From IMG/VR virus record IMGVR_UViG_3300021399_000125, positions 1-64,000 of that record: a stretch of DNA of 64,000 nt. One strand, given 5' to 3'. Both the position numbers and the translations under genes were made by a program. This stretch comes from a virus. Its lineage: Duplodnaviria > Caudoviricetes. Positions within the stretch are counted from its first letter, which is position 1, and every line of letters begins with the position of its first letter. Below are positions 3,987-34,407 of the stretch, piece after piece. Under the pieces are notes generated by a model. The model was not told the origin of the DNA. It did no database searches and saw only the letters and a list, made by a program, of their open reading frames with translations.

Positions 3987-5507
3987 TCAGCCCCAATCGT
4001 CTCCGTCTTCAGCCGTCTGCTCTCCGGAGTCTGTCAGCTCGCTGATATCCTTCTTCGGGGCGCCGCCCTCGTCTGTGGCAGCCTCGGACTCCAGATCTGC
4101 AGAGCTCATCTGTGTAGAGCTTTGCAGCGGCCTGAACATATCCTGCAGCCCAAGCACATTTGTTTCCAGGAAGCTCATGCAATCCAGCTCCGCCTGGCCG
4201 AGACCCTGAGATGCGGAGTACAAGCTGATCGTCGGAAGTCCATAGGTAGCAGCCTTCAGATAAGCGTCCCCGAGCTCCTTCCGATTGAACGGGCTGCAGT
4301 CAAGGAACGTTACCTTGAAATACTTCCCGTAGCTGAAGCTCTGGATATATCTGTTCACCATGTCCTCAATGCTCTTTACGATGCCGAATGTGATACTCTG
4401 GTCAACCTTGATGGAAAGCAGCAATGCGTTTGCAGAGGCCTTCGCGTTGTTGAACAGCAGCGAAGACACGCCAGCTGCCGTGAACAGATTCTGTTCTGCC
4501 TCGGTCACGGTGTCATTGTCGTTTGCGCTGGACTTCTCAAAGCTGATCTTGTTGATGTCCATCGGGGTCAGAACAGATCCAACCTCGTCAGGCATCACAC
4601 TGTCAAGATTCCGCCAGAAATCAACTGCCTTCGGATAGTCTATAATCCAGTCCCCGTCGTCGGTCATCGGCAGCTTCATTGCCAGCAACGCGTAGTTCTC
4701 GATCTGCTCCTTCGTCAGCTTTAACTCTTTGTAGTCCTCAATGTCGTAAATCTCCCGCAGAATGCCGGAGAATGGAGGGATCGCATATTCCAGAATATCC
4801 GTGTTTGCCTTGATCGCAAACGAAGTAGGGGAGTCCAATTCAATCCACTGCTGCTTGATCTTCCCCTCCTTGTACAGCTGATACTTCTTCTGGAACTCCT
4901 GTGGGTAGAGGGGAAGCAGATGCGGACGGATGGAGAAGTACTGGAAGTCAAAGGCCACGTTGAATACGTTGCCCTCAATAGAACAGATCTTGCAGTAGTC
5001 ACTCGGCAGCTGCTGAATGGTGATCCCGTCCTTGCTCCTCCAAATAGTGCCATAGAATACGTCCTCTCGCAGGCACACAGTCAGGATCTTCGGGAACTGC
5101 GTCCGCACGCTCATAATAGACATCGTGTCCAGAACCTTGCGATAATTCAGGTTGGTAGTCCTCTGATTTGCGGTCTTCGGGTCGATCCGATAGGGGGAGA
5201 CAATATACGACAGGTCAGACAGGCCGACGAAATAATTGATCAGACGCCTGAAGTGCGGGCTTGCCCCATACAGATATCGCACAGCGTTGCGGAGCTGCTT
5301 CTCGTTTCTGTATGGATCATTGAGGAACTCCGCAATTTCAGACTTGGAGTAGCGATAAAAGGACGGCGCGTCCCGCCGGCTGTTTGGATCTCTTGTTATC
5401 AGCTTGTTCAGAATCGCAAACCGACTTGTAATTGCAATTCCGTTTTCAAAATTCACAGGCTTCGCATCTGCCTGCTTACCAGTGACGGGTGTCTTTTCTT
5501 CTTCCAG
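3987..5507 (-). CDS. phage portal protein (SPbeta-like)
   Basis: ~506 aa directly downstream of terminase; acidic C-terminal GGAP..D tail typical of portals; AAAGGAGG RBS points to a CTG start at 5507. Confidence 0.75.
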   Translation of the reverse strand: MEEEKTPVTGKQADAKPVNFENGIAITSRFAILNKLITRDPNSRRDAPSFYRYSKSEIAEFLNDPYRNEKQLRNAVRYLYGASPHFRRLINYFVGLSDLSYIVSPYRIDPKTANQRTTNLNYRKVLDTMSIMSVRTQFPKILTVCLREDVFYGTIWRSKDGITIQQLPSDYCKICSIEGNVFNVAFDFQYFSIRPHLLPLYPQEFQKKYQLYKEGKIKQQWIELDSPTSFAIKANTDILEYAIPPFSGILREIYDIEDYKELKLTKEQIENYALLAMKLPMTDDGDWIIDYPKAVDFWRNLDSVMPDEVGSVLTPMDINKISFEKSSANDNDTVTEAEQNLFTAAGVSSLLFNNAKASANALLLSIKVDQSITFGIVKSIEDMVNRYIQSFSYGKYFKVTFLDCSPFNRKELGDAYLKAATYGLPTISLYSASQGLGQAELDCMSFLETNVLGLQDMFRPLQSSTQMSSADLESEAATDEGGAPKKDISELTDSGEQTAEDGDDWG

Positions 5508-6155: not shown

Positions 6156-6278
6156 CCGTTCTGTTTGACAATCAAACTTACTGATTCTTCGCGCCCCGTT
6201 TCGTCGAAACTACTCCGGTTTGTATGGCGCTCCACAGCTTCATGGCGGAACGACGCCCTAAGACCGCAGTCTCTCAAA
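6156..6278 (-). ncRNA. putative omega-RNA scaffold of TnpB at the IStron 3' end
   Basis: Non-coding segment between the tnpB stop and the element end/3' splice site, the established position of omega-RNA; boundaries inferred. Confidence 0.5.
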
Positions 6279-7418
6279 TCAGGCTGCGTATCTCATCAGG
6301 TTAATTGCGGCGTTGTAATCGCGGTCGATTGTGAGCCCGCATTCCTGGCAGTGATAAACCCGGTCGCTGAGCTTCAGATCGCGCTTGACACAGCCGCAGC
6401 AGGAACAGGTTTTACTGCTTGGATAAAACCGATCTGCGGTAACGAGTCTGATTCCATTCCACTCAGCCTTGTACTGGATCTGTCGCAGGAATTCACCGAA
6501 GCACTGCTCCTGAACCGCCTTTGCCAGATGATGATTTGACATCATGCCGGTGACGTTCAGATCCTCGACCGTAATACTGCATGGGAGCCTGGAAATCAGC
6601 TCGTGTGTAACCTGATGTAAATAGTTATTGCGAATACCGCGTTGGCGACGGAAGAGCGCTCGAAGTTTCTCTTCTTTGCGCTCGATGTTGTTGGTCTTTA
6701 CATAACAGACTCCGCGCTTATTCGCCTCGTATTTCCGGGAGATCGTGCGCTGGGTGTGCTTAATCTTCCGTTCAAGCTTGCGCATCTTTGCGGACTTGTT
6801 GATGTTATGATAGACCAGCCCCTCGCTGCCGAATGCAACGGTCGCCAGCTCTTTTACCCCAAGATCGATGCCCATTGGGATGTCTGTCAATTCGGGTGCT
6901 TGGCTCTCACACTCCATATTGAATGACAAAAACCACTTGGGTGCGTCGTAGGAGATCCGAACATTGTAGTACTTGCTACGCTCGTCGGATTTCTCTGGGA
7001 AGGTAAAGTCGGATTTGAATTTGACCTTCCCGAGCTTTTGGATTTGGCAGGTGGAACCTGAAAAGTAAAATCGGTCGGTGCGTACCGGATAATTCGACTT
7101 ACTTCTCTTCCTGCTTTTAAATTTTGGATGTTTGGAAGTTCCATTGAAAAAGCGCTTATACGCCTTATCGAGGTCCCGGCAGACGATTTGCAGACTTGTA
7201 CTCGAAACTTCATATAACCAACCATGTTCGCCGTCATTCTTCAGCGGTTTTAACATGTTGATCATGTCAAAAGCGCCAAGATATTTGCCGCCCGCTTCGT
7301 AGTTCTTCTGCTGATAATCCAGCATCCAGTTCCACACATACCGGCAAGCGCCGATATGCTGCCAAATCTTTTGCTCCTGTTCTTTCGTGGGATAAATTCG
7401 GATTCGATAACCTCTCAT
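6279..7418 (-). CDS. tnpB: RNA-guided endonuclease TnpB
   Basis: N-terminal YRIRIYPTKEQ; RuvC GIDLG, VEDL, DRDYNAAINL all intact; zinc finger CSCCG...CQECG. Confidence 0.95.
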   Translation of the reverse strand: MRGYRIRIYPTKEQEQKIWQHIGACRYVWNWMLDYQQKNYEAGGKYLGAFDMINMLKPLKNDGEHGWLYEVSSTSLQIVCRDLDKAYKRFFNGTSKHPKFKSRKRSKSNYPVRTDRFYFSGSTCQIQKLGKVKFKSDFTFPEKSDERSKYYNVRISYDAPKWFLSFNMECESQAPELTDIPMGIDLGVKELATVAFGSEGLVYHNINKSAKMRKLERKIKHTQRTISRKYEANKRGVCYVKTNNIERKEEKLRALFRRQRGIRNNYLHQVTHELISRLPCSITVEDLNVTGMMSNHHLAKAVQEQCFGEFLRQIQYKAEWNGIRLVTADRFYPSSKTCSCCGCVKRDLKLSDRVYHCQECGLTIDRDYNAAINLMRYAA

Positions 7419-7859
7419 CGCTGTGATACCTCCTTTCTCAAGGAGGCGTTATTCAGTAAGTTTCAGGACGCTACTCCTTGTCAGTACATTTGTACTCTCT
7501 GCCTTTCGACAGAAGCGCAGACTATATCTTCATCCCGTAGGATGCCTACCACTTCGGATTGCCAATCGCTTGCAATCCTACTCCCTTGAGGGATAGTCGT
7601 TGAACCTTCCGCTGTTCGCGGCTTGGCTGCTGATTGCCCGTTGAAAAGTGTTTAGGATTTAACCATGCACCATCTCACAGCTTCTTTCTGCTTTCGCCGC
7701 CGTCGCACTTGCCCGTATTTCATGGCTATGCTGTGGCGCTGTGAGCTTTGGGGTGTTCCAGCAATTCAGTAGGTTGTTTTTCGAACACCTTTCGGTGAAC
7801 GGGGACCAGTAGATGATGCTTCTAATCATCTGCCCTTGGCAAGATTTGCATCATGACTA

Positions 7860-10677: not shown

Positions 10678-11709
10678 TCAAAGGTCAGACAGCGTCGCGT
10701 GCGTCTGCTGCCCTATAATTTCTCCATCCCGGAAATACTTTGCAAAATCGTCTTCGTCGTCAGTGTCGTTATATATCGCCAGCATCGCGTCGCCGGACGC
10801 CTTTTCCCACTGCATAATAGAGATCACAACCTGGCTTGGCAGTCCAAGCTTCATCAGGTAGGTCACAAACGCATGGCGGAAACTGTGCGCGTATACGTCC
10901 ACACCCAAAATATTGCTGGCTGTTCTCGCCCAGCTGTTCATGATAATATGGTTACGCGCTTTTTTCGGATCGTCCCTGTCAGGGAACAACCACTCACTCT
11001 TGATGCCGAGCCGCTCCCGTTCTGCCATCCAGTCCTCAAAGTATGGCAAGAACTGCTTGCGCAGCACATAGCACGGAACCTTTTTGCCGCCGGACTTGCC
11101 CTTCGTGTTAATCGGCGCAGACTTAAACAGCGTCCCGTAAACCACCTTGTCGTCAGAAAAATCGCTGACCTTAAACCGGAACAGCTCTGCCTTTCTTCGC
11201 CCGGAATACGCGGCTAGCGCAAAGCAGCACGCCTTCTCGTATTCCTTCCTGTCGCGCAGCGTGTTCAGCAGCAGCTCGATTTGCTCCTGCGTCAGAATCG
11301 TCTTCTCTCTCACAGGCGTGTTGGTAGGGCTCTCCACCTTCTTGATCAGATTTCGGAACATCGGGTACTCATCTGCGTACAGAAGCTCAATTGCGTTTGA
11401 AAAGCTGCTGATGCTGGCCTTCACCCGCCTGATCCTGGCAGGGGAGTTCTCGTTGTCCTCCAGCATATGCCCTTGAAAATTCACGTAATCTCTTATCGTA
11501 CATTGGATGATCGATTTGTTATCGCATTCCTGCAGCAGGAATACAAAGAACGTATCCAGGTCATGGCTGTACCCGTCAATTGTCCCGGCCGAGCGCTTCA
11601 TAGATTTCAAATACCGGAGGAAATCCTTTTTCAGCTTCAGATTCTCCGGATTGATCTGCGCCAGCAGCTCCGGACTCGTGAGCTGATTCATTTTTGTCTT
11701 TCTTGCCAT
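10678..11709 (-). CDS. tyrosine recombinase/integrase
   Basis: SGRRKAEL, TKGK, HSFRH, terminal Y; N-terminal SAM-like domain. Confidence 0.9.
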   Translation of the reverse strand: MARKTKMNQLTSPELLAQINPENLKLKKDFLRYLKSMKRSAGTIDGYSHDLDTFFVFLLQECDNKSIIQCTIRDYVNFQGHMLEDNENSPARIRRVKASISSFSNAIELLYADEYPMFRNLIKKVESPTNTPVREKTILTQEQIELLLNTLRDRKEYEKACCFALAAYSGRRKAELFRFKVSDFSDDKVVYGTLFKSAPINTKGKSGGKKVPCYVLRKQFLPYFEDWMAERERLGIKSEWLFPDRDDPKKARNHIIMNSWARTASNILGVDVYAHSFRHAFVTYLMKLGLPSQVVISIMQWEKASGDAMLAIYNDTDDEDDFAKYFRDGEIIGQQTHATLSDL

Positions 11710-18832: not shown

Positions 18833-19735
18833 TCAGGCCAGAAGCGTTTCAGATTCTACGATCCCGCTATCGATCAGATAGTTATGGTTCAGACTTCCGA
18901 GATTCAGATTCCGATAAGCTTCGTCAATCTCGTCAGCAGTAATCCCGATATAATCCAGAGTCTGAGCAGAGGTACTGTGACCAAGCATCTTCTGGAGAAG
19001 AAGCAGCTTCCTTGGATCGTTCCTGCTCATCACCATCTGGTGGAAGCAGAAGGTCTTTCTCAAGGAATGGGTTGCAAGCCGGATACCGAGTCCAAGATCA
19101 GAGCCGATACCCTTCATGATACGGTCTACCGATACTCTGGAGATTGGCTGTCCCTTATTCAATCCGTTTGTGGACTGAGACTGGAACATGTAGTCACTCA
19201 GCTTTACGTTTGGAGTATTCTCCAGGTACAGAGTCACAGCTTCGATCACAGCTGTATTGACGGTGACGTATCGGTTCTTCTTTTTCTTCCTGGTGTTCCT
19301 CGTCTTCTGTTCAAACACGGGGAAGCGTTCCTTGAACGTACAGTCTGCGTTGATCAGATCGCTGAACCGGAGAACCCGGAGATCGCTGACGCGAAGTCCA
19401 AAGTTGATTCCGGTGATAAACAGCATGTTGTCTCTGTACCTTTCATTGGAGATCAGGTACTGCGAGATCCGTAGGATGTCTTCCATACTCTTGATCGGTT
19501 CAGCAGCGTGTTCAGGAGCCAGTACCTTTTCGGTATCCTCATCAGCAGGGAGGATCAGATTCGGATTCAGCTTTCTGCTATTGGATTTGAGAGCAGCCAG
19601 ATCGATCACACCGTCTTCCACGATTCTGGACGATGGGAACTTGATGACGTTAGATACAGCACCATCTGCAGAGAGTCCAGAAGAGGGAAGACCTTCGGTG
19701 GTTGGCAGATTGTGCAGCTTTGTGATATTGGACAT
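18833..19735 (-). CDS. tyrosine recombinase (catalytic domain)
   Basis: GLRVSDL, EQKT, HSLRKT, LGHS, TLDY. Confidence 0.9.
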   Translation of the reverse strand: MSNITKLHNLPTTEGLPSSGLSADGAVSNVIKFPSSRIVEDGVIDLAALKSNSRKLNPNLILPADEDTEKVLAPEHAAEPIKSMEDILRISQYLISNERYRDNMLFITGINFGLRVSDLRVLRFSDLINADCTFKERFPVFEQKTRNTRKKKKNRYVTVNTAVIEAVTLYLENTPNVKLSDYMFQSQSTNGLNKGQPISRVSVDRIMKGIGSDLGLGIRLATHSLRKTFCFHQMVMSRNDPRKLLLLQKMLGHSTSAQTLDYIGITADEIDEAYRNLNLGSLNHNYLIDSGIVESETLLA

Positions 19736-28711: not shown

Positions 28712-28746
28712 ACGTCAGCGCCGGCGCTGATGATATAAATTAAAAT

Positions 28747-29073
28747 TGCTGTAACGCATTTCTCAGTAAGCTTGAGAACATCTGCCTATGGCGGATGTAA
28801 CGTAACGTGAGGTAAAGGGGTGGCAGCCACCTGCAGCAGCTGAAGGCGCCATAGAACTCCAGTTGGCCTGGTCTGATCGCTAAAGCAAGATCTCGTGTGC
28901 CAAAACGGCCGACAACCACCGGTTACTTCACAATTACGCGGCGTAATCAAACGCAATATTATTTAAAAGGCAAAAAGGACTTGACAAATTCAGATCCTCA
29001 CGCCAATCCGCGCAAGGATTGCACGAGTCAGCTCCTGGTCGTCTTTACGTCATACCCAATACAGGTTACAGCA
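28747..29073 (+). ncRNA. retron msr/msd-like RNA, copy 1
   Basis: Terminal inverted repeat TGCTGTAAC/GTTACAGCA, then G-CATT, hairpin, CATCTGCC-TAT-GGCGGATG hairpin, structured cargo. Confidence 0.7.
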
Positions 29074-29142
29074 GAAAGGAATTGTTTTATGAATGTCGAT
29101 CCTTCTGAGCAATACGAAGGATCTTAATCGGAGGAGTCACAT

Positions 29143-29712
29143 ATGGACTTATACGCCTACGCACAAATCGAAACCCTGTCAGAGCTTGCGAAAGCCAACG
29201 GTATCGAGGTTCCGCGGCTTCGCGGTTATCGCCTCATGGCACAGGAGCCACCCATTACACCGGAGGAAAGGAAGGAAAGTGAGACCAGCGCTATCCGCCA
29301 TCTTTACGAAGAAGCCTGCGAATACGATGTCGCGTTTTCCCTCCATCCTGCGTGGGTTGAATACTCTTCGAGAACCGATCTGACCAAGAAACGGTTTTTG
29401 ACCAAGGACGGAGAGCTCCGCTGGGATTTGCTTCACGGCAAGCGCCGCAAGAATATGAAGTATCTGATCAAGCTGATCCGTCGCCGGATGCGTGCTGATT
29501 ACGACATGTGGAACAAGTATGCCGGTAAGGACGGGGTTTTGTACATTCATACACGCTGCGGCGGCAACAAATGGGAATACTACGGTTGCAAAGCGCTGGA
29601 AAAAGAACCCTGGTATCTTGACCGTGTCGACGACTGGTTTGACGGCAGCTACTGCAGCATCTATGCCAAGGTTCAGCCTCCTGAAGCAAAAGAGTCGGAG
29701 AATCAAAACTAA
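29143..29712 (+). CDS. hypothetical protein
   Basis: 189 aa, GGAGGAG RBS. Confidence 0.7.
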   Translation: MDLYAYAQIETLSELAKANGIEVPRLRGYRLMAQEPPITPEERKESETSAIRHLYEEACEYDVAFSLHPAWVEYSSRTDLTKKRFLTKDGELRWDLLHGKRRKNMKYLIKLIRRRMRADYDMWNKYAGKDGVLYIHTRCGGNKWEYYGCKALEKEPWYLDRVDDWFDGSYCSIYAKVQPPEAKESENQN

Positions 29713-29964
29713 CATTTGTGAGGTTTCAAGATGATGGTTTATCTGATAACTGACGATTGCGGAATGAACGTCTTTGCAATTTTCTCATCAAAGCAGAAGG
29801 CAATAGACTGGCTTGAAAACAAGGCTGTCCAGGAATATGGATGGACTCCAGGCGAGGTTGGCTCGGCTCAGATAAAGCCGTGGCCGGTTGATGCCGAATA
29901 AAACTTAACTTTAATGGATGTTGCGCTGAAAGGGGTGACCAGAATGTTCAAAAAGGAATTCATC

Positions 29965-30216
29965 ATGAAAAGAGTATTAGCAGTTTTTCTTGTTGTCCTG
30001 CTTTTTGCGGCGATTCTTTCCGGATGCAAAGTGTATGTGCCGGGAGATTGTGACACAAGGTTCAACATCATCTCCGAATCTTTGACCGGCGACGGCGGTT
30101 TCGTGGTTTTCGAGGACACAGAGACCGGTGTCATGTACGTTTTCTACAAAGCGCATTCCGGCGGCGGTCTTTCGGTTCTCTACAATCCGGACGGAACAAT
30201 CATGACAAGGAATTAA
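29965..30216 (+). CDS. putative lipoprotein
   Basis: MKRVLAVFLVVLLFAAILSGC lipobox. Confidence 0.65.
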   Translation: MKRVLAVFLVVLLFAAILSGCKVYVPGDCDTRFNIISESLTGDGGFVVFEDTETGVMYVFYKAHSGGGLSVLYNPDGTIMTRN

Positions 30217-30269
30217 CCATTTATCGGAACACGAAGGATAACCATGACAATCGAGAAAGGAATGGTTTT

Positions 30270-31424
30270 ATGTACTACGTTGTCACAAAGCTGAGTTCCT
30301 ATACCCACCAGATGACCTTTGAAGAGTTTCTCGGCCTGCCCATGGACGCCTCCTTTGCGCTCTACGACGGCAGCAGGCAGAGCACCTCCACCAGAACCTT
30401 TGAGGTCCCGCAGATCCCCGCCCGCCTCAGAGGCGCAGCCTATACCGAGGCGGCCATCGACGCCATGGCCTCATTTTGTATCGAGCACAGCGCTCTGTAT
30501 GCCGTCCCCCGGCACGAGCTGTACCACGAGTTCCGCATCCCGAAGCGGTCCGGCGGGTTTCGCAAAATCAGAGCCCCGCATCCCGAGCTCAAGGCGGCGC
30601 TGTATCAGCTGGGCGGTTTGCTGAACCAGTACTTCGGCGCCAACCGGATCTATCACACCTCTGCATACGCCTTTATCAAAGGCCGGTCTCACATCGACTC
30701 TGTCCGCGTCCACCAGCAGAACGAGAGCTGGTGGTTTGCCAAGCTGGATCTGAAGGATTTCTTCGGCTCCGTCACCAAGGAATTTGCCATCCGGATGCTC
30801 TCCATGCTTCACCCATTTGCCGAGGTGCTGGAGCGTCAGGACGGCCGCGAAGTGTTTGAGAACGCCCTGGAGCTCGCCTTTCTGGATGGGGTTTTGCCCC
30901 AGGGCTCTCCGCTCTCTCCGCTTCTCACCAATCTCATCATGGTCCCCATTGACTTCACCCTCTCCCGGGCGTTTCGTCAGTTTGCCGGCGGCCGTGCGGT
31001 TTACACCAGGTACGTAGACGATATGCTCATCTCCTCCCGGCTCCAGTTCAACGTCCGTGACGTGGAAGCCCTGCTTCAGAACACCTTCTCCTCCTTTGGG
31101 GCGCCCCTGCGTCTCAATCCAGAAAAGACGCGCTATGGCTCAAGGTCCGGCAGCAACTGGAATTTGGGAGTGGTGCTGAACAAGGACAACAATATCACCG
31201 TTGGGTATAAGAACCTGCGCCGGTTTAAGTCCATGCTGTACAACTTCCGTCGGGATAATCTCCTGGGGGTTTCCTGGGAGATCGGCGATATCCAGCACGC
31301 CCTGGGCTTGTACGCCTACTACCGCATGGTAGACGCTGCCACGGTGGACAACATCCTCAATGAATTCAAAAGCAAATATGGATTTGATGTCATTCAATCC
31401 ATGAAGCAGGCGCTCAGCCTGTAA
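30270..31424 (+). CDS. retron-type reverse transcriptase
   Basis: IPKRSGGFRKIRAP, SAYAF..GRS, KLDLKDFF, LPQGSPLSP, YTRYVDD, KTR, NLG; 384 aa without maturase/endonuclease extension. Confidence 0.9.
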   Translation: MYYVVTKLSSYTHQMTFEEFLGLPMDASFALYDGSRQSTSTRTFEVPQIPARLRGAAYTEAAIDAMASFCIEHSALYAVPRHELYHEFRIPKRSGGFRKIRAPHPELKAALYQLGGLLNQYFGANRIYHTSAYAFIKGRSHIDSVRVHQQNESWWFAKLDLKDFFGSVTKEFAIRMLSMLHPFAEVLERQDGREVFENALELAFLDGVLPQGSPLSPLLTNLIMVPIDFTLSRAFRQFAGGRAVYTRYVDDMLISSRLQFNVRDVEALLQNTFSSFGAPLRLNPEKTRYGSRSGSNWNLGVVLNKDNNITVGYKNLRRFKSMLYNFRRDNLLGVSWEIGDIQHALGLYAYYRMVDAATVDNILNEFKSKYGFDVIQSMKQALSL

Positions 31425-31426
31425 CC

Positions 31427-31745
31427 GTTCTGCAAACGCATTTTCCCCTCCGGGAAGCATCTGCCTATGGCGGATGTATTGTACTGCCTGGATAAAAACC
31501 ACGGCAGGAAGGAACCCAGTAAAGTCGCGATTCATGTCTCGAACTGTTTCGCAAATTTTCGCGACGCTGTACAATGCGAAACGCCCGCCGTCTCACGGCT
31601 TAAACCCCAAGATCCACACGGGTTTATCCGCATCGACACGAAAATAAATTTACGGTCGAAGATCAGGGAGCGAGCCATCTGAGTGGCTCCAGACGGCCGC
31701 AGCCCGGCATCGCGGCCGCGCACACTCTCTTAAGGTTTGCAGAAC
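31427..31745 (+). ncRNA. retron msr/msd-like RNA, copy 2
   Basis: Inverted repeat GTTCTGCAAAC/GTTTGCAGAAC, then G-CATT, hairpin, and 21 nt identical to copy 1 (CATCTGCCTATGGCGGATGTA). Confidence 0.7.
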
Positions 31746-31919
31746 CAAAACAAAAATATGCGATCCGGCCTCCTCGCGATAATTATCTCCTTTCTCCCTT
31801 CTCCTTTCAACACTCCTTTCTTTTCCATGTTTCATACTTCGCCGGTCGCATTTCGTTTACATTGCCCTTAAAGCCTGGCTGAACAGGCGCCGGGTTTTTC
31901 AAACCCGGTGGGCATATTT

Positions 31920-31995
31920 CCAGGTGTAGCTCAGTCGGAAGAGCGCGTGATTTGGGATCACGAGGCCGCAGGTTCGAGCCCTGTCACTTGGACCA
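31920..31995 (+). tRNA. tRNA-Pro(TGG)
   Basis: CCAGGTG/CACTTGG, anticodon TGG, CCA. Confidence 0.9.
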
Positions 31996-32013
31996 CCCGG
32001 GTTTCCGGGTACC

Positions 32014-32236
32014 ACCCACCCCATTGCGAACATTGGTAAGCTCCGGCAAGCCGCTTCTGCCCATGGCGGAAGCCTCGCAAAAAGAAAGCGTCCCCGCTCC
32101 CTATCTTTGTTCCGCCGCGTGAAAAGCGCCTGACGGCGCTTTCTTGCGCCGGAACAAAGATAATACGCGGCGAGGGAAATTCAATCGTTCAAGACGCAGC
32201 TTGTCTTAAACGATTGAATTTGGCAATGGGGTGGGT
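32014..32236 (+). ncRNA. retron msr/msd-like RNA, divergent copy 3
   Basis: 14-bp inverted repeat ACCCACCCCATTGC/GCAATGGGGTGGGT; variant hairpin GCTTCTGCC-CAT-GGCGGAAGC; two long hairpins as cargo. Confidence 0.55.
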
Positions 32237-32326: not shown

Positions 32327-32626
32327 ATGGGTAAATTTGCAGTAGGCGACGTGCTCCGCGTCCGGGATTTTGAGGATATGGCCTCGGAATTCGGCGAGAC
32401 AAACGGAGAAATAATTCACAGTCCAAATTTTGCAAGGGGGATGCGTCCTCTGTGCGGGCAGCTCTTCACCGTGCGCAGCATTCGCGGAGACAATATCTTC
32501 GCGCAGGAGCCTCAGTTCAAGTCCTGGTCGTGGGCCGAATGGATGCTGGAATTCGCCGATGACGACCGCGAAACGACCTATGAGGTCGGAAGCTTCGCGG
32601 ATCTGTTCGGAGGTGTGTCTGTGTGA
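32327..32626 (+). CDS. hypothetical protein (SH3-like, KF.VGD.LRVR start)
   Basis: 99 aa, first of four translationally coupled genes. Confidence 0.65.
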   Translation: MGKFAVGDVLRVRDFEDMASEFGETNGEIIHSPNFARGMRPLCGQLFTVRSIRGDNIFAQEPQFKSWSWAEWMLEFADDDRETTYEVGSFADLFGGVSV

Positions 32627-32997
32627 GCGAAGAGATTTTGTGCCTTTTGCGCGAATACGCCGACAATCGGATCCGGATCCGGTGCGGTACTCCGGAAATG
32701 CGTGCGCGTGTGTTGACGGTTTTGTCTGACACCCTCGGCGTGGATATTGATCACAATTTTCCCCGTTCCACGAGATATCTGCATCCGCCGTATGCCTGTC
32801 CGCAGTTCCTGGAAATCGAGATCGTCCGCGTCGCAAGAATCGGGCATGAAGACGCCTATCGTGTCAGTTGCTGCATGTATACCAGATCTGCGAAAACCGT
32901 TCCCGGGGAAGAGTTTCTCGCCCTGGTTTCAGAGCTTGAGCCCGACCGTTTTGAAATCGGAGATCTCTCCGAGCTCTTAGGAGGTGTCTGTGTATGA
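32623..32997 (+). CDS. hypothetical protein, paralog A
   Basis: RA..L..L...LGVDI...R..YL.PPY motif shared with the next two ORFs. Confidence 0.7.
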   Translation: MSEEILCLLREYADNRIRIRCGTPEMRARVLTVLSDTLGVDIDHNFPRSTRYLHPPYACPQFLEIEIVRVARIGHEDAYRVSCCMYTRSAKTVPGEEFLALVSELEPDRFEIGDLSELLGGVCV

Positions 32998-33335
32998 GCA
33001 TGGTTCATGAGGTATTATCCCAACTGATTCAGTCCGACACGTCAATCCAATGCGATACGCCGGAAGAGCGTGCCGATCTGCTCCGCGATCTGGCTGCGCT
33101 CGGCGTGAATATACACGCCGGCGCTGATCGCAGTGCGTATCTGGGGCCTCCCTATGACGGCACAGAGTTCATGTATGTCCGTCTTGAGCATCTTCCGAGA
33201 AATCGCTTTGGCATCGTCTGCTCGGCCTTTTCTAATCGCAGTATTTCTCCGGATGAGTTCCGCGCCATGATCGACGATTGTGATTTTGCGGCATTCGACG
33301 GGGACATCGCAGAGCTGTTTGGAGGTGTGTCATGA
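32994..33335 (+). CDS. hypothetical protein, paralog B
   Basis: CDTPEERADLLRDLAALGVNIH..DRSAYLGPPY. Confidence 0.7.
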   Translation: MSMVHEVLSQLIQSDTSIQCDTPEERADLLRDLAALGVNIHAGADRSAYLGPPYDGTEFMYVRLEHLPRNRFGIVCSAFSNRSISPDEFRAMIDDCDFAAFDGDIAELFGGVS

Positions 33336-33697
33336 TAGAGGAGATTCTGGATCTTATCCAATCCATGTGGAATTCCTATGAGGAAATCGAAACCAGCTCT
33401 CTGGCCCAGCGGGCCGAGGCGCTGCGGCTTTTGGAGTCTCTCGGCGTAGATATCCACCACGGGCAAGACCGCACCGGGTATCTGGAGCCTCCCTATGCCG
33501 GCGGTGAGTTTCCGCACATCCGCTTTGAAAAAATCGGCCTTACCGGCAAAAGGTTTGGCGTCAGCTGCCGGCGGAGCTGTAAAAACCCGGTTCCGTATAC
33601 GAAATTCCTCAACCAGGTTTCGTCCTTTATCGATCCCGTGGAGGCGCCGGATCAATCCATGTTCGACGAAATGTTTTCCGGCCCGGAACAAACTTGA
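33332..33697 (+). CDS. hypothetical protein, paralog C
   Basis: RAEALRLLESLGVDIH..DRTGYLEPPY. Confidence 0.7.
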   Translation: MIEEILDLIQSMWNSYEEIETSSLAQRAEALRLLESLGVDIHHGQDRTGYLEPPYAGGEFPHIRFEKIGLTGKRFGVSCRRSCKNPVPYTKFLNQVSSFIDPVEAPDQSMFDEMFSGPEQT

Positions 33698-33711
33698 AAG
33701 GAGTATCTGTC

Positions 33712-34407
33712 ATGTCAACCTTCTATCTCAGGGTGTTTTTGACTAATCTTCCCGCGTATAACAGCGGGCTGCTCCGCGGCGCCTGGGTGGAGCTTCCCGC
33801 AAAGCAGGAGGAGCTTCTCCGGGTGTTCGAGTCTCTCGGCATCACCCTTCCAGAGCAGGTGTTTGTGAGCGACTATGACACCGACCTCAACGACGCGCCA
33901 GAAATCCTGGGCGAGCACGCCAATCTTGAAAAGCTCAACTATCTTGCGGAGCTTCTGGATGATCTGGACAAGTACGACTATGAAAAGTATCAGGCCGTCC
34001 TGGAAAGCGGCGATTTCCCATCCAAATCCGTGGACGATCTCATCAATCTGACCTTCAATCTGGACAATTACATCCTGTATCCGGACGTCCCAGACGACGA
34101 TGACCTCGGCCGGTATTATATCGAGGATTCTGGATGTTATGACCTGTCCTCCATGGGCAACCTGGCGAACTATCTGGATTACGAGTCCTTCGGCCGGGAC
34201 GTCCGCTATGAAGAGGGCGGCTGCTTTACGTCCTACGGCTATGTCTTCAGCGACTGCAGAAGCTGGGACGAGGAATTTGACGGCGACCCTGACAGCATCC
34301 CGGACCGTCTCCGGGTTTTTGATCTGCTCCGCGATCTGGCGGAGGAGGAAGACGAGTTTGAGTTCTCGTTTTCCTGTCTGCCAATGGAAGTCTGCGTAAA
34401 CGACTGA
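33712..34407 (+). CDS. ardA: antirestriction protein ArdA (DNA mimic)
   Basis: TNL..YN.G.L.G.WVELP, DYD, YLDYESFGRD...GCFTSYGYV; very acidic. Confidence 0.9.
   Translation: MSTFYLRVFLTNLPAYNSGLLRGAWVELPAKQEELLRVFESLGITLPEQVFVSDYDTDLNDAPEILGEHANLEKLNYLAELLDDLDKYDYEKYQAVLESGDFPSKSVDDLINLTFNLDNYILYPDVPDDDDLGRYYIEDSGCYDLSSMGNLANYLDYESFGRDVRYEEGGCFTSYGYVFSDCRSWDEEFDGDPDSIPDRLRVFDLLRDLAEEEDEFEFSFSCLPMEVCVND

Follow-up and report, generated by a model that had tools for sequence, protein, structure and literature searches.

What does a phage do with a retron-type reverse transcriptase (RT) that has several RNA units around its gene? The question is raised by the 98,174-bp record IMGVR_UViG_3300021399_000125, which is that of a large gut phage, with genes for a portal protein, an exonuclease, a DnaB-like helicase and a large DNA polymerase. 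We analysed positions 1-64,000 of this record, hereafter called the window. Retrons have been described in bacterial defence as systems made of one RT, one non-coding RNA (ncRNA) and one effector, and they normally act with adjacent effectors. Their RNAs present a1/a2 repeats, a branching G after the stem and hairpins recognized by the RT, and there is normally one such RNA per RT. In the window, three ncRNA units, all on the + strand, flank a single RT gene (Table 1). We consider it probable from the arguments developed below that the locus is a natural retron array, in which one phage RT of the retron family would serve three msr/msd-type ncRNAs (two to five in relatives). In the literature searched, we found neither a natural retron with several ncRNAs nor a phage retron array.

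Anatomy of the Three RNA Units

Each unit is enclosed by its own inverted repeat, of 9, 11 and 14 bp for units 1, 2 and 3, respectively. This is what a first-pass annotation of the window had described: all its coordinates and motifs hold, including the G-CATT, the differing first hairpin, the identical 21-mer and the AG of units 1 and 2, and for this window it was right to speak of a dispersed set of cassettes. In unit 1, the arm a1 TGCTGTAAC (28747-28755) pairs with a2 GTTACAGCA (29065-29073); G28756, CATT and a first hairpin (hairpin 1, 28760-28778) follow a1, and a second hairpin (hairpin 2, CATCTGCC-TAT-GGCGGATG, 28779-28797) comes before a UAAC box. The insert covers approximately 28802-29062 and an AG (29063-29064) stands directly before a2. 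Unit 2 is built in the same manner: a1 GTTCTGCAAAC (31427-31437) pairs with a2 GTTTGCAGAAC (31735-31745), G31438 and CATT precede hairpin 1 (31443-31456), hairpin 2 occupies 31458-31476 with a 21-mer from 31458 identical to that of unit 1, and an insert at about 31481-31732 is followed by AG (31733-31734) ahead of a2. In unit 3, a1 (32014-32027) pairs with a2 (32223-32236), and after G32028 come a linker hairpin (about 32035-32052), hairpin 2 (CTTCTGCC-CAT-GGCGGAAG, 32054-32072) and an interior with two long hairpins (32091-32173 and 32177-32221). As had been noted, this hairpin 2 is a compensatory variant of the one in units 1 and 2, with one change from A-U to U-A. The G residues at 28756 and 31438, proposed earlier as priming sites, are indeed present directly after a1 and are joined by a third at 32028.

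Hairpin 1 thus has a sequence specific to each unit and hairpin 2 is conserved across the three. An exact search of the window for the pattern of the latter, CWTCTGCCNNNGGCGGAWG, returns three sites, each of them on the + strand; if up to two mismatches are tolerated, both strands of the window give 7 matches versus 0.19 expected, and no additional copies of the hairpin occur elsewhere in the whole record. The predicted fold of each unit is closed by its own arms, with z scores of -4.25, -3.92 and -9.78 for units 1 to 3, and none of the shuffled versions folded as well as the real unit. The units match no Rfam family, retron msr included, at the gathering score or at E ≤ 10. Concerning the interiors, supposed earlier to be unrelated and to measure about 150-265 nt, the first part stands, since they resemble neither one another nor any other part of the genome (matches in the 98 kb are of 13 nt at most), and the second has to be corrected to a range from about 140 nt in unit 3 to about 260 nt in unit 1. 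A TATAAAT box lies within 28724-28746 and ends some 9 nt ahead of unit 1, which opens with a1. A transcript could thus begin at or near the closing stem; a simple promoter scan made no call there.

A Reverse Transcriptase of the Retron Family

The RT matches Pfam RVT_1, and its earlier assignment to the retron type is borne out by profiles and by fold. Its best models in PADLOC are all retron RTs, led by RT_II-A (1.2e-43), and the best NCBIfam model is retron_St85_RT (1.5e-47), with weaker scores for the group II intron RT (2.8e-17) and for Drt2 (1.8e-9). A sequence search of the PDB returned the RTs of retrons Ec83 (1.3e-24) and Ec78 as the best solved relatives. In the structural comparison, the predicted model, with a pLDDT (predicted local distance difference test) of 81, has only retron RTs among its top 10 PDB fold matches, and these rank ahead of group II intron RTs, DRT9 and Abi polymerases. 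The protein possesses an N-terminal extension of about 80 amino acids which is conserved through its family, and the active site reads Y[AV]DD in 7/7 aligned family RTs. This family comprises at least 2,706 protein clusters at E ≤ 1e-10, nearly all of them unnamed metagenomic proteins; one member is annotated "retron-type reverse transcriptase" by IMG.

Recurrence of the Units in Related Phages

Relatives were collected by a profile scan for the RT (related loci are labelled L followed by a number), which found 115 in IMG/VR contigs of 50-140 kb and 39 in metagenome-assembled genomes (MAGs). At 36-55% identity, RT homologues are frequent in phage contigs of this size from gut and rumen. The MAG relatives come mainly from Clostridia bins of gut and rumen samples and are probably mis-binned phage contigs. 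Repeats of the hairpin 2 type surround the RT four times in L001 and three times in L004, and a covariance model was built on this hairpin and later rebuilt. The first model gave 105 matches at E ≤ 1 in 57 sources, of which four were on the minus strand, each overlapping a plus-strand match; at E ≤ 0.005, 61/61 matches were on the RT strand. With the rebuilt model, other viral loci contributed 37 further matches and MAG loci 49, again without exception on the RT strand. Such a scan had been proposed in the first-pass annotation, and it reveals dozens of contigs in which 2-5 copies of hairpin 2, nearly all oriented like the RT gene, accompany a homologous RT. Among 35 loci with a match, 33 have at least two units, 15 at least three and 5 have four. 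The annotation had also stated that a hairpin missing near homologous RTs, or present in unrelated contexts, would speak against its interpretation: the recurrence of the hairpin beside homologous RTs favours the retron array.

The units are found at about 300 nt before the RT start, right after the RT stop, 0.3-0.9 kb beyond it or several kb downstream, these last often adjoining tRNA genes. In most relatives, one unit is directly upstream of the RT and the remaining ones come after it; the upstream unit then ends, as is canonical in retrons, about 25 nt ahead of the RT start codon. As for unit 1 of the window, the end of its a1 and its linker (CTGTAAC-GCATTT) are those of the units directly upstream of the RT in L019, L054 and L074, which marks it as the putative orthologue of the RT-proximal upstream unit. 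By this signature, unit 1 is that same unit, pushed away by three inserted open reading frames (ORFs) without counterpart in relatives.

In the alignment of hairpin 2 matches, 99.3% of the cells are paired and both sides have changed in 7/8 pairs, figures to be read with the fact that the alignment was fitted to the covariance model, which favours pairing. Sliding the pair partners abolishes the signal, and the many G-U pairs are consistent with a + strand RNA. For each covariance match, the best enclosing inverted repeat was then sought, which defined 88 units with a median length of 306 nt. A perfect stem of at least 8 bp followed by G is present in 65/88, with a stem sequence that is different each time. 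The base located 3' of a1 is G in 67/88 units, versus 24% at control positions, and AG immediately precedes a2 in 48/88, versus 7% in controls. Most units have 19-28 nt from the end of a1 to hairpin 2, a linker composed of the G, 4-5 unpaired bases and hairpin 1; the latter forms in 98% of 44 distinct short linkers, though its sequence varies in almost every unit. Hairpin 2 is followed by a conserved GUAACAAYUUGA, and YAURUAG stands before a2. Read from the sequence, this order of a1, branching G, stem-loops, template and a2 is the plan of a retron msr/msd.

A second class of units has a linker of 38-57 nt starting with GUAGAU or GCAGAU. Distal units of this class measure 204-317 nt (L042 10343-10568, L090 10946-11262, L033 9528-9761, L077 7531-7734 and L031 8458-8692), mostly carry CGG before a2 and adjoin in some cases tRNA genes. 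Unit 3 of the window resembles them in being short and placed behind a tRNA, but its linker is short. Another observation concerns the divergent RT relatives (36-41% identity) L005, L003, L007 and L013, which have non-coding gaps of 270-1000 nt on both sides of the RT. Those of L005 (3570-3990 and 5150-6000) present a GC-rich insert within AT-rich DNA and contain CATTTAAT-GTT-ATTAGATG, a diverged hairpin; neither covariance model gives a match in the gaps of these four loci.

Turnover of the Inserts

Inserts are unrelated within a locus and can be aligned between loci only in near-identical phages. They are A-rich as RNA (A 0.31, T 0.21). Over 48 close locus pairs, the mean divergence is 1.8% for the RT gene and 3.7% for the neighbouring E1 gene, whereas it reaches 14.5% for the interior of the upstream unit, 9.8% for the first downstream unit and 15.6% for the second, so that in close phage pairs the interiors diverge about 5-10 times faster than the flanking genes. 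The differences are confined to the interior: no change affects the handle (the part from the G to the conserved box after hairpin 2) or the 40-70 nt that immediately precede a2. Even with 6% divergence in the RT gene and 15-37% in the inserts, conservation of the handle is still 100%. Examples are L021/L022/L024/L020, L027/L028 and L033/L036, with interiors around 4720-4920, 6240-6380 and 6520-6680. In more distant pairs, the divergence of the interiors is about equal to that of synonymous sites, and several very close pairs are clearly above this level, such as L027 versus L028 (RT 0.4%, upstream-unit interior 7.5%). There are few indels and the changes are mainly transitions, with a spectrum (AG 63, CT 58, AC 35, CG 19, AT 18, GT 14) free of adenine-specific bias. 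L021 illustrates one way in which inserts change: its RT is that of L022 (3 differences) and its upstream-unit insert is near that of L020 (4.5% versus 22.5% divergence), which shows that insert alleles are swapped by recombination. Given this case, hypermutation alone is not required behind the divergence. We take from these data that length and composition of the interior are under constraint but its sequence is not, and that its turnover is quick; selection, recombination or RT-linked mutagenesis may drive it.

Different origins or contents of the inserts were considered and rejected. An insert acting as recombination donor or directed at the phage itself is disfavoured by the lack of a second copy in the 98-kb genome. 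Against an origin from host genes, or an antisense action on them, a search made for the inserts of units 1 and 2 only gave no more than chance-level matches of 20-37 nt in 301 genomes from the order of a Clostridia MAG in which a relative is present. A hidden neo-like ORF is not indicated either, as a stop-free frame exists in 17/65 inserts versus 17% expected, with no consistent strand.

Proposed Mechanism and Points Against It

In the retron array that we propose, each RNA would be closed by its own a1/a2 stem and the unpaired G just 3' of a1 (28756, 31438 and 32028) is the predicted 2'-OH primer. The G, the spacer of 4-5 nt, the variable hairpin and hairpin 2 with its GUAAC box would make up the handle for recognition by the RT. 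The region from the handle to a2 would be the template, with a synthesis starting at the conserved ...AG (YAURUAG in relatives) beside a2. One enzyme would in this manner allow the phage to make several different multicopy single-stranded DNAs (ssDNAs). The analysis demonstrates the anatomy of the units with its conservation and covariation, their strand, their linkage to the RT family and the retron affinity of the enzyme; we infer the reverse transcription itself, the branch linkage and the extent of the complementary DNA (cDNA).

Several results weigh against this reading. With 162 bits for retron_St85_RT, the RT is under the curated NCBIfam cut-off of 235 bits. Mestre et al. (2020) are said to have described NAxxH and VTG as motifs typical of retron RTs, and an alignment to the Ec83 RT shows both altered, from NAKIH to SVRVH and from VTG to NLG, so that only the H and the G are kept; in the 7-sequence alignment of the family, [SA]VxxH replaces NAxxH and an invariant NWNLG stands in place of VTG. 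The structure of the inserts is only moderate (median z of -1.4 for 65 units, 31% below -2; the insert of unit 3 is exceptional with -12.75), and units 1 and 2, with inserts of about 250 nt, have branched folds, versus the one long stable hairpin of the classical retron msd. No known retron effector was recognized by PADLOC or Pfam among the neighbours tested, and no effector of the toxin type is conserved. Finally, all relatives belong to one phage lineage, and common ancestry could thus account for part of the linkage between the units, the RT and the E1 module. As for the RT, its score below the St85 cut-off points to a separate group, which we place within the retron clade as a subfamily of its own.

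Relation to Known Systems

The retrons closest to this RT, by sequence and by predicted fold, are those of the Ec78/Ec83/St85 group (types I-A and II-A) and Ec86. The locus shares with them the a1/a2 stem, the unpaired G after a1, the msr-like stem-loops before the template and, in most relatives, a unit placed immediately ahead of the RT gene. It differs from them by the presence of more than one ncRNA for each RT, upstream and downstream of its gene and with tRNAs interspersed, by long weakly structured inserts in the place of one msd hairpin, by the absence of PtuAB, NDT or another known effector, and by the altered NAxxH/VTG motifs, the N-terminal extension and the 100-kb phage carrier. 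Engineering has produced a comparable arrangement: in the "multitrons", one retron RT works on arrayed msr-msd units (10.1101/2023.07.17.549397), which makes a natural mechanism with several ncRNAs feasible. Multitrons also combine one retron RT with several msr-msd units of different templates, but they are man-made and have identical msr repeats, whereas the natural units described here possess each their own closing stem and hairpin 1.

Other types of elements resemble the locus less. Like diversity-generating retroelements, it places a phage RT beside a fast-varying sequence; unlike them, the variable sequence is non-coding. Such an element was rejected since there is neither a pair of template and variable repeats, the inserts having no second copy in the genome, nor the adenine-specific substitution bias. 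A rolling-circle system similar to DRT2 was also rejected, as a stop-free repeat ORF is not enriched in the inserts and the Drt2 profile is such a weak match, and so was a mobile element resembling a miniature inverted-repeat transposable element, as arms and interiors differ between copies and the 5' handle alone is common.

Alternative Explanations

The units could also be templates for a mechanism of another kind, known from the UG27 RT systems of gut prophages, which have variable tandem arrays of ncRNAs of about 150 nt, each templating a cDNA hairpin of 50-100 nt with two accessory proteins required (10.64898/2026.09.22.753630, preprint, September 2026). The cDNAs would then be short unbranched hairpins made from part of the unit, or would depend on a trigger, and the remainder of the insert would serve as a spacer. 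Besides the UG27 precedent itself, this would fit with the strong discrete hairpins of unit 3 and of similar distal units, and with close relatives that conserve, as seen above, only the handle and the stretch before a2 and let the interior drift. The two systems have in common a gut-phage RT and several ncRNA units of conserved structure and diverse sequence, whose number varies between relatives. But the UG27 enzyme is a class 2 UG/Abi RT with YSDD, whereas the RT described here has Y[AV]DD, and its affinity to retron RTs is far greater than that to Drt2 and other class 2 UG RTs. The UG27 units are in tandem, with a pseudoknot and the motifs AUC-N7-UANAG and UUYA; those of our family are of about 300 nt, dispersed and organized by a1/a2 and the G, whose strong conservation after a1 is what priming of the retron type requires. 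Inspecting by eye the 3' ends of the units listed, we did not see AUC-N7-UANAG: beside a2 they carry YATRTAG and lack the AUC-N7 spacing. The UG27 partners (sORF and bORF) are described without known domains (10.1101/2021.12.02.470933), whereas the conserved neighbours here include a recognizable ThiF/E1. Membership in UG27, a system compared here by its description, was rejected on the active-site motif, the profile affinities and the anatomy of the units, and a mechanism of the UG27 kind appears quite improbable to us. Of the published systems, UG27 comes closest in concept, but it belongs to a different RT group. At the other extreme, the units might be structured phage RNAs independent of the RT, for instance processed small RNAs co-transcribed with tRNAs, the adjacency to the RT being inherited synteny. 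The units do alternate with tRNA genes and the evidence comes from one lineage. It would however be surprising to find then the geometry specific to retrons (a1/a2, G, stem-loops and template) beside an RT of the retron family, a placement some 25 nt before the RT start in most relatives, and a handle fully conserved despite the divergence of RT and inserts; we judge this explanation very improbable.

One more alternative concerns the role of the RNAs and not their nature. The RT and its ncRNAs could be the sensor arm of a phage-borne system of defence or superinfection exclusion, a new retron type whose effector would be the ubiquitin-like, E2-like, JAB and E1 module encoded upstream. Homologues of the E2-like, JAB and E1 genes, to which the conserved neighbours are limited, are located within 5 kb of the RT in 66/67 viral loci and 17/19 MAG loci, and the RT is just downstream of the E1 gene in 77/79 E1-anchored loci. 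The 224-amino-acid protein has a clear ThiF/E1 adenylation domain and the 309-amino-acid one a weak JAB match; retrons normally have adjacent effectors and a temperate lifestyle, compatible with such a function, is possible for this phage. Among relatives, the identity of the E1 gene (50-68%) is above that of the RT (36-48%). On the other side, the synteny was observed in one phage lineage and is not independent, L177 and L185 keep 3-5 units without an E1 gene within 6 kb, and neither Pfam nor PADLOC nor a sequence search of the PDB gave a match for the 478-amino-acid protein, labelled earlier "E2-like". Unit 1 of the window is split from the RT by three unrelated ORFs, and the need for several RNAs would be left unexplained. 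We grant this explanation a limited chance.

Possible Role and Significance

Returning to the retron array, its role could be, speculatively, in conflict, for example through ssDNAs acting as decoys or sensors in warfare between phage and host or between phages. What suggests it is the early-arm site by the antirestriction gene ArdA, the lack of a conserved toxin-type effector, the fast and shuffled inserts, and the E2-like, JAB and E1 genes upstream. A more specific version, which we find unlikely, would be a natural "multitron" producing a panel of ssDNAs: the inserts would be under diversifying selection and traded between co-infecting phages, each of them neutralizing or probing a different DNA-sensing defence of the host or of a rival phage, possibly with the ubiquitin-like conjugation module. 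If this were true, a retron would have been turned from bacterial defence into a phage weapon.

That one phage RT can serve many ncRNAs already has a precedent in the UG27 arrays (10.64898/2026.09.22.753630). What is new here is the combination of a phage-borne RT of the retron family, present in hundreds of large phages of gut and rumen, with an array of several ncRNAs, no classical effector, and inserts changing much faster than the neighbouring genes. If the RNAs are reverse transcribed, they would provide a natural precedent for the multiplexed production of ssDNA realized in multitrons, a second RT lineage, beside UG27, with template RNA arrays kept by phages, and a tractable entry to the role of phage-made ssDNA in infection. 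The compact handle could also serve as scaffold for long ssDNA of about 250 nt.

Neighbouring Genes and Layout of the Locus

The RT and its units are situated at the start of the rightward early arm of the phage genome (Table 1). The three ORFs inserted between unit 1 and the RT have no homologues among 80 related loci and stand outside the conserved system. The alternation of tRNA genes with units, which is visible in the window around tRNA-Pro, exists in many relatives too.

Table 1. Coordinates of the RT, the RNA units and other features discussed (window positions)
Feature	Position	Strand	Remarks
Conserved upstream trio: 478 amino acids, JAB-like 309 amino acids, ThiF/E1 224 amino acids	25678-28711	+	
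ncRNA unit 1	28747-29073	+	Arms, G, hairpin 1, hairpin 2, insert
Three small ORFs of 189, 56 and 100 amino acids (last = DUF6440, Pfam)	29143-30216	+	Between unit 1 and RT
Retron-type RT, 384 amino acids, YVDD	30270-31424	+	Pfam RVT_1, profile models, PDB matches
ncRNA unit 2	31427-31745	+	Begins 3 nt past the RT stop codon
tRNA-Pro(UGG)	31920-31995	+	Between units 2 and 3
ncRNA unit 3	32014-32236	+	Begins 18 nt after tRNA-Pro
RAGATH-18 RNA	6178-6238	-	
TnpB-type transposase ORF	6279-7418	-	phrog_506
Group I intron	7497-7825	-	73 bits

Downstream of the array come tRNA-Pro, small ORFs and the ArdA gene (33694-34407, 1.3e-29), which lies 1.5 kb beyond unit 3 and has a homologue within the flank in only 1/80 related loci. 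The small ORFs are four (32327-33697) and three of them are paralogous. The idea that these three proteins are partners of the three units had to be abandoned, as none has a homologue in the 80 related loci; the fourth (32327-32626) has one in only 7.

Apart from the array, three genes for tyrosine recombinases (Phage_integrase) were noted, at G000 69055-69606 (+) and at 18947-19486 (-) and 10756-11295 (-) of the window, from which the possibility of a temperate lifestyle arises. The window holds four tRNAs and one group I intron in total, and this intron is part of a - strand cluster of the structural arm (6178-7825), in which it is found side by side with the TnpB-type ORF and the RAGATH-18 RNA.

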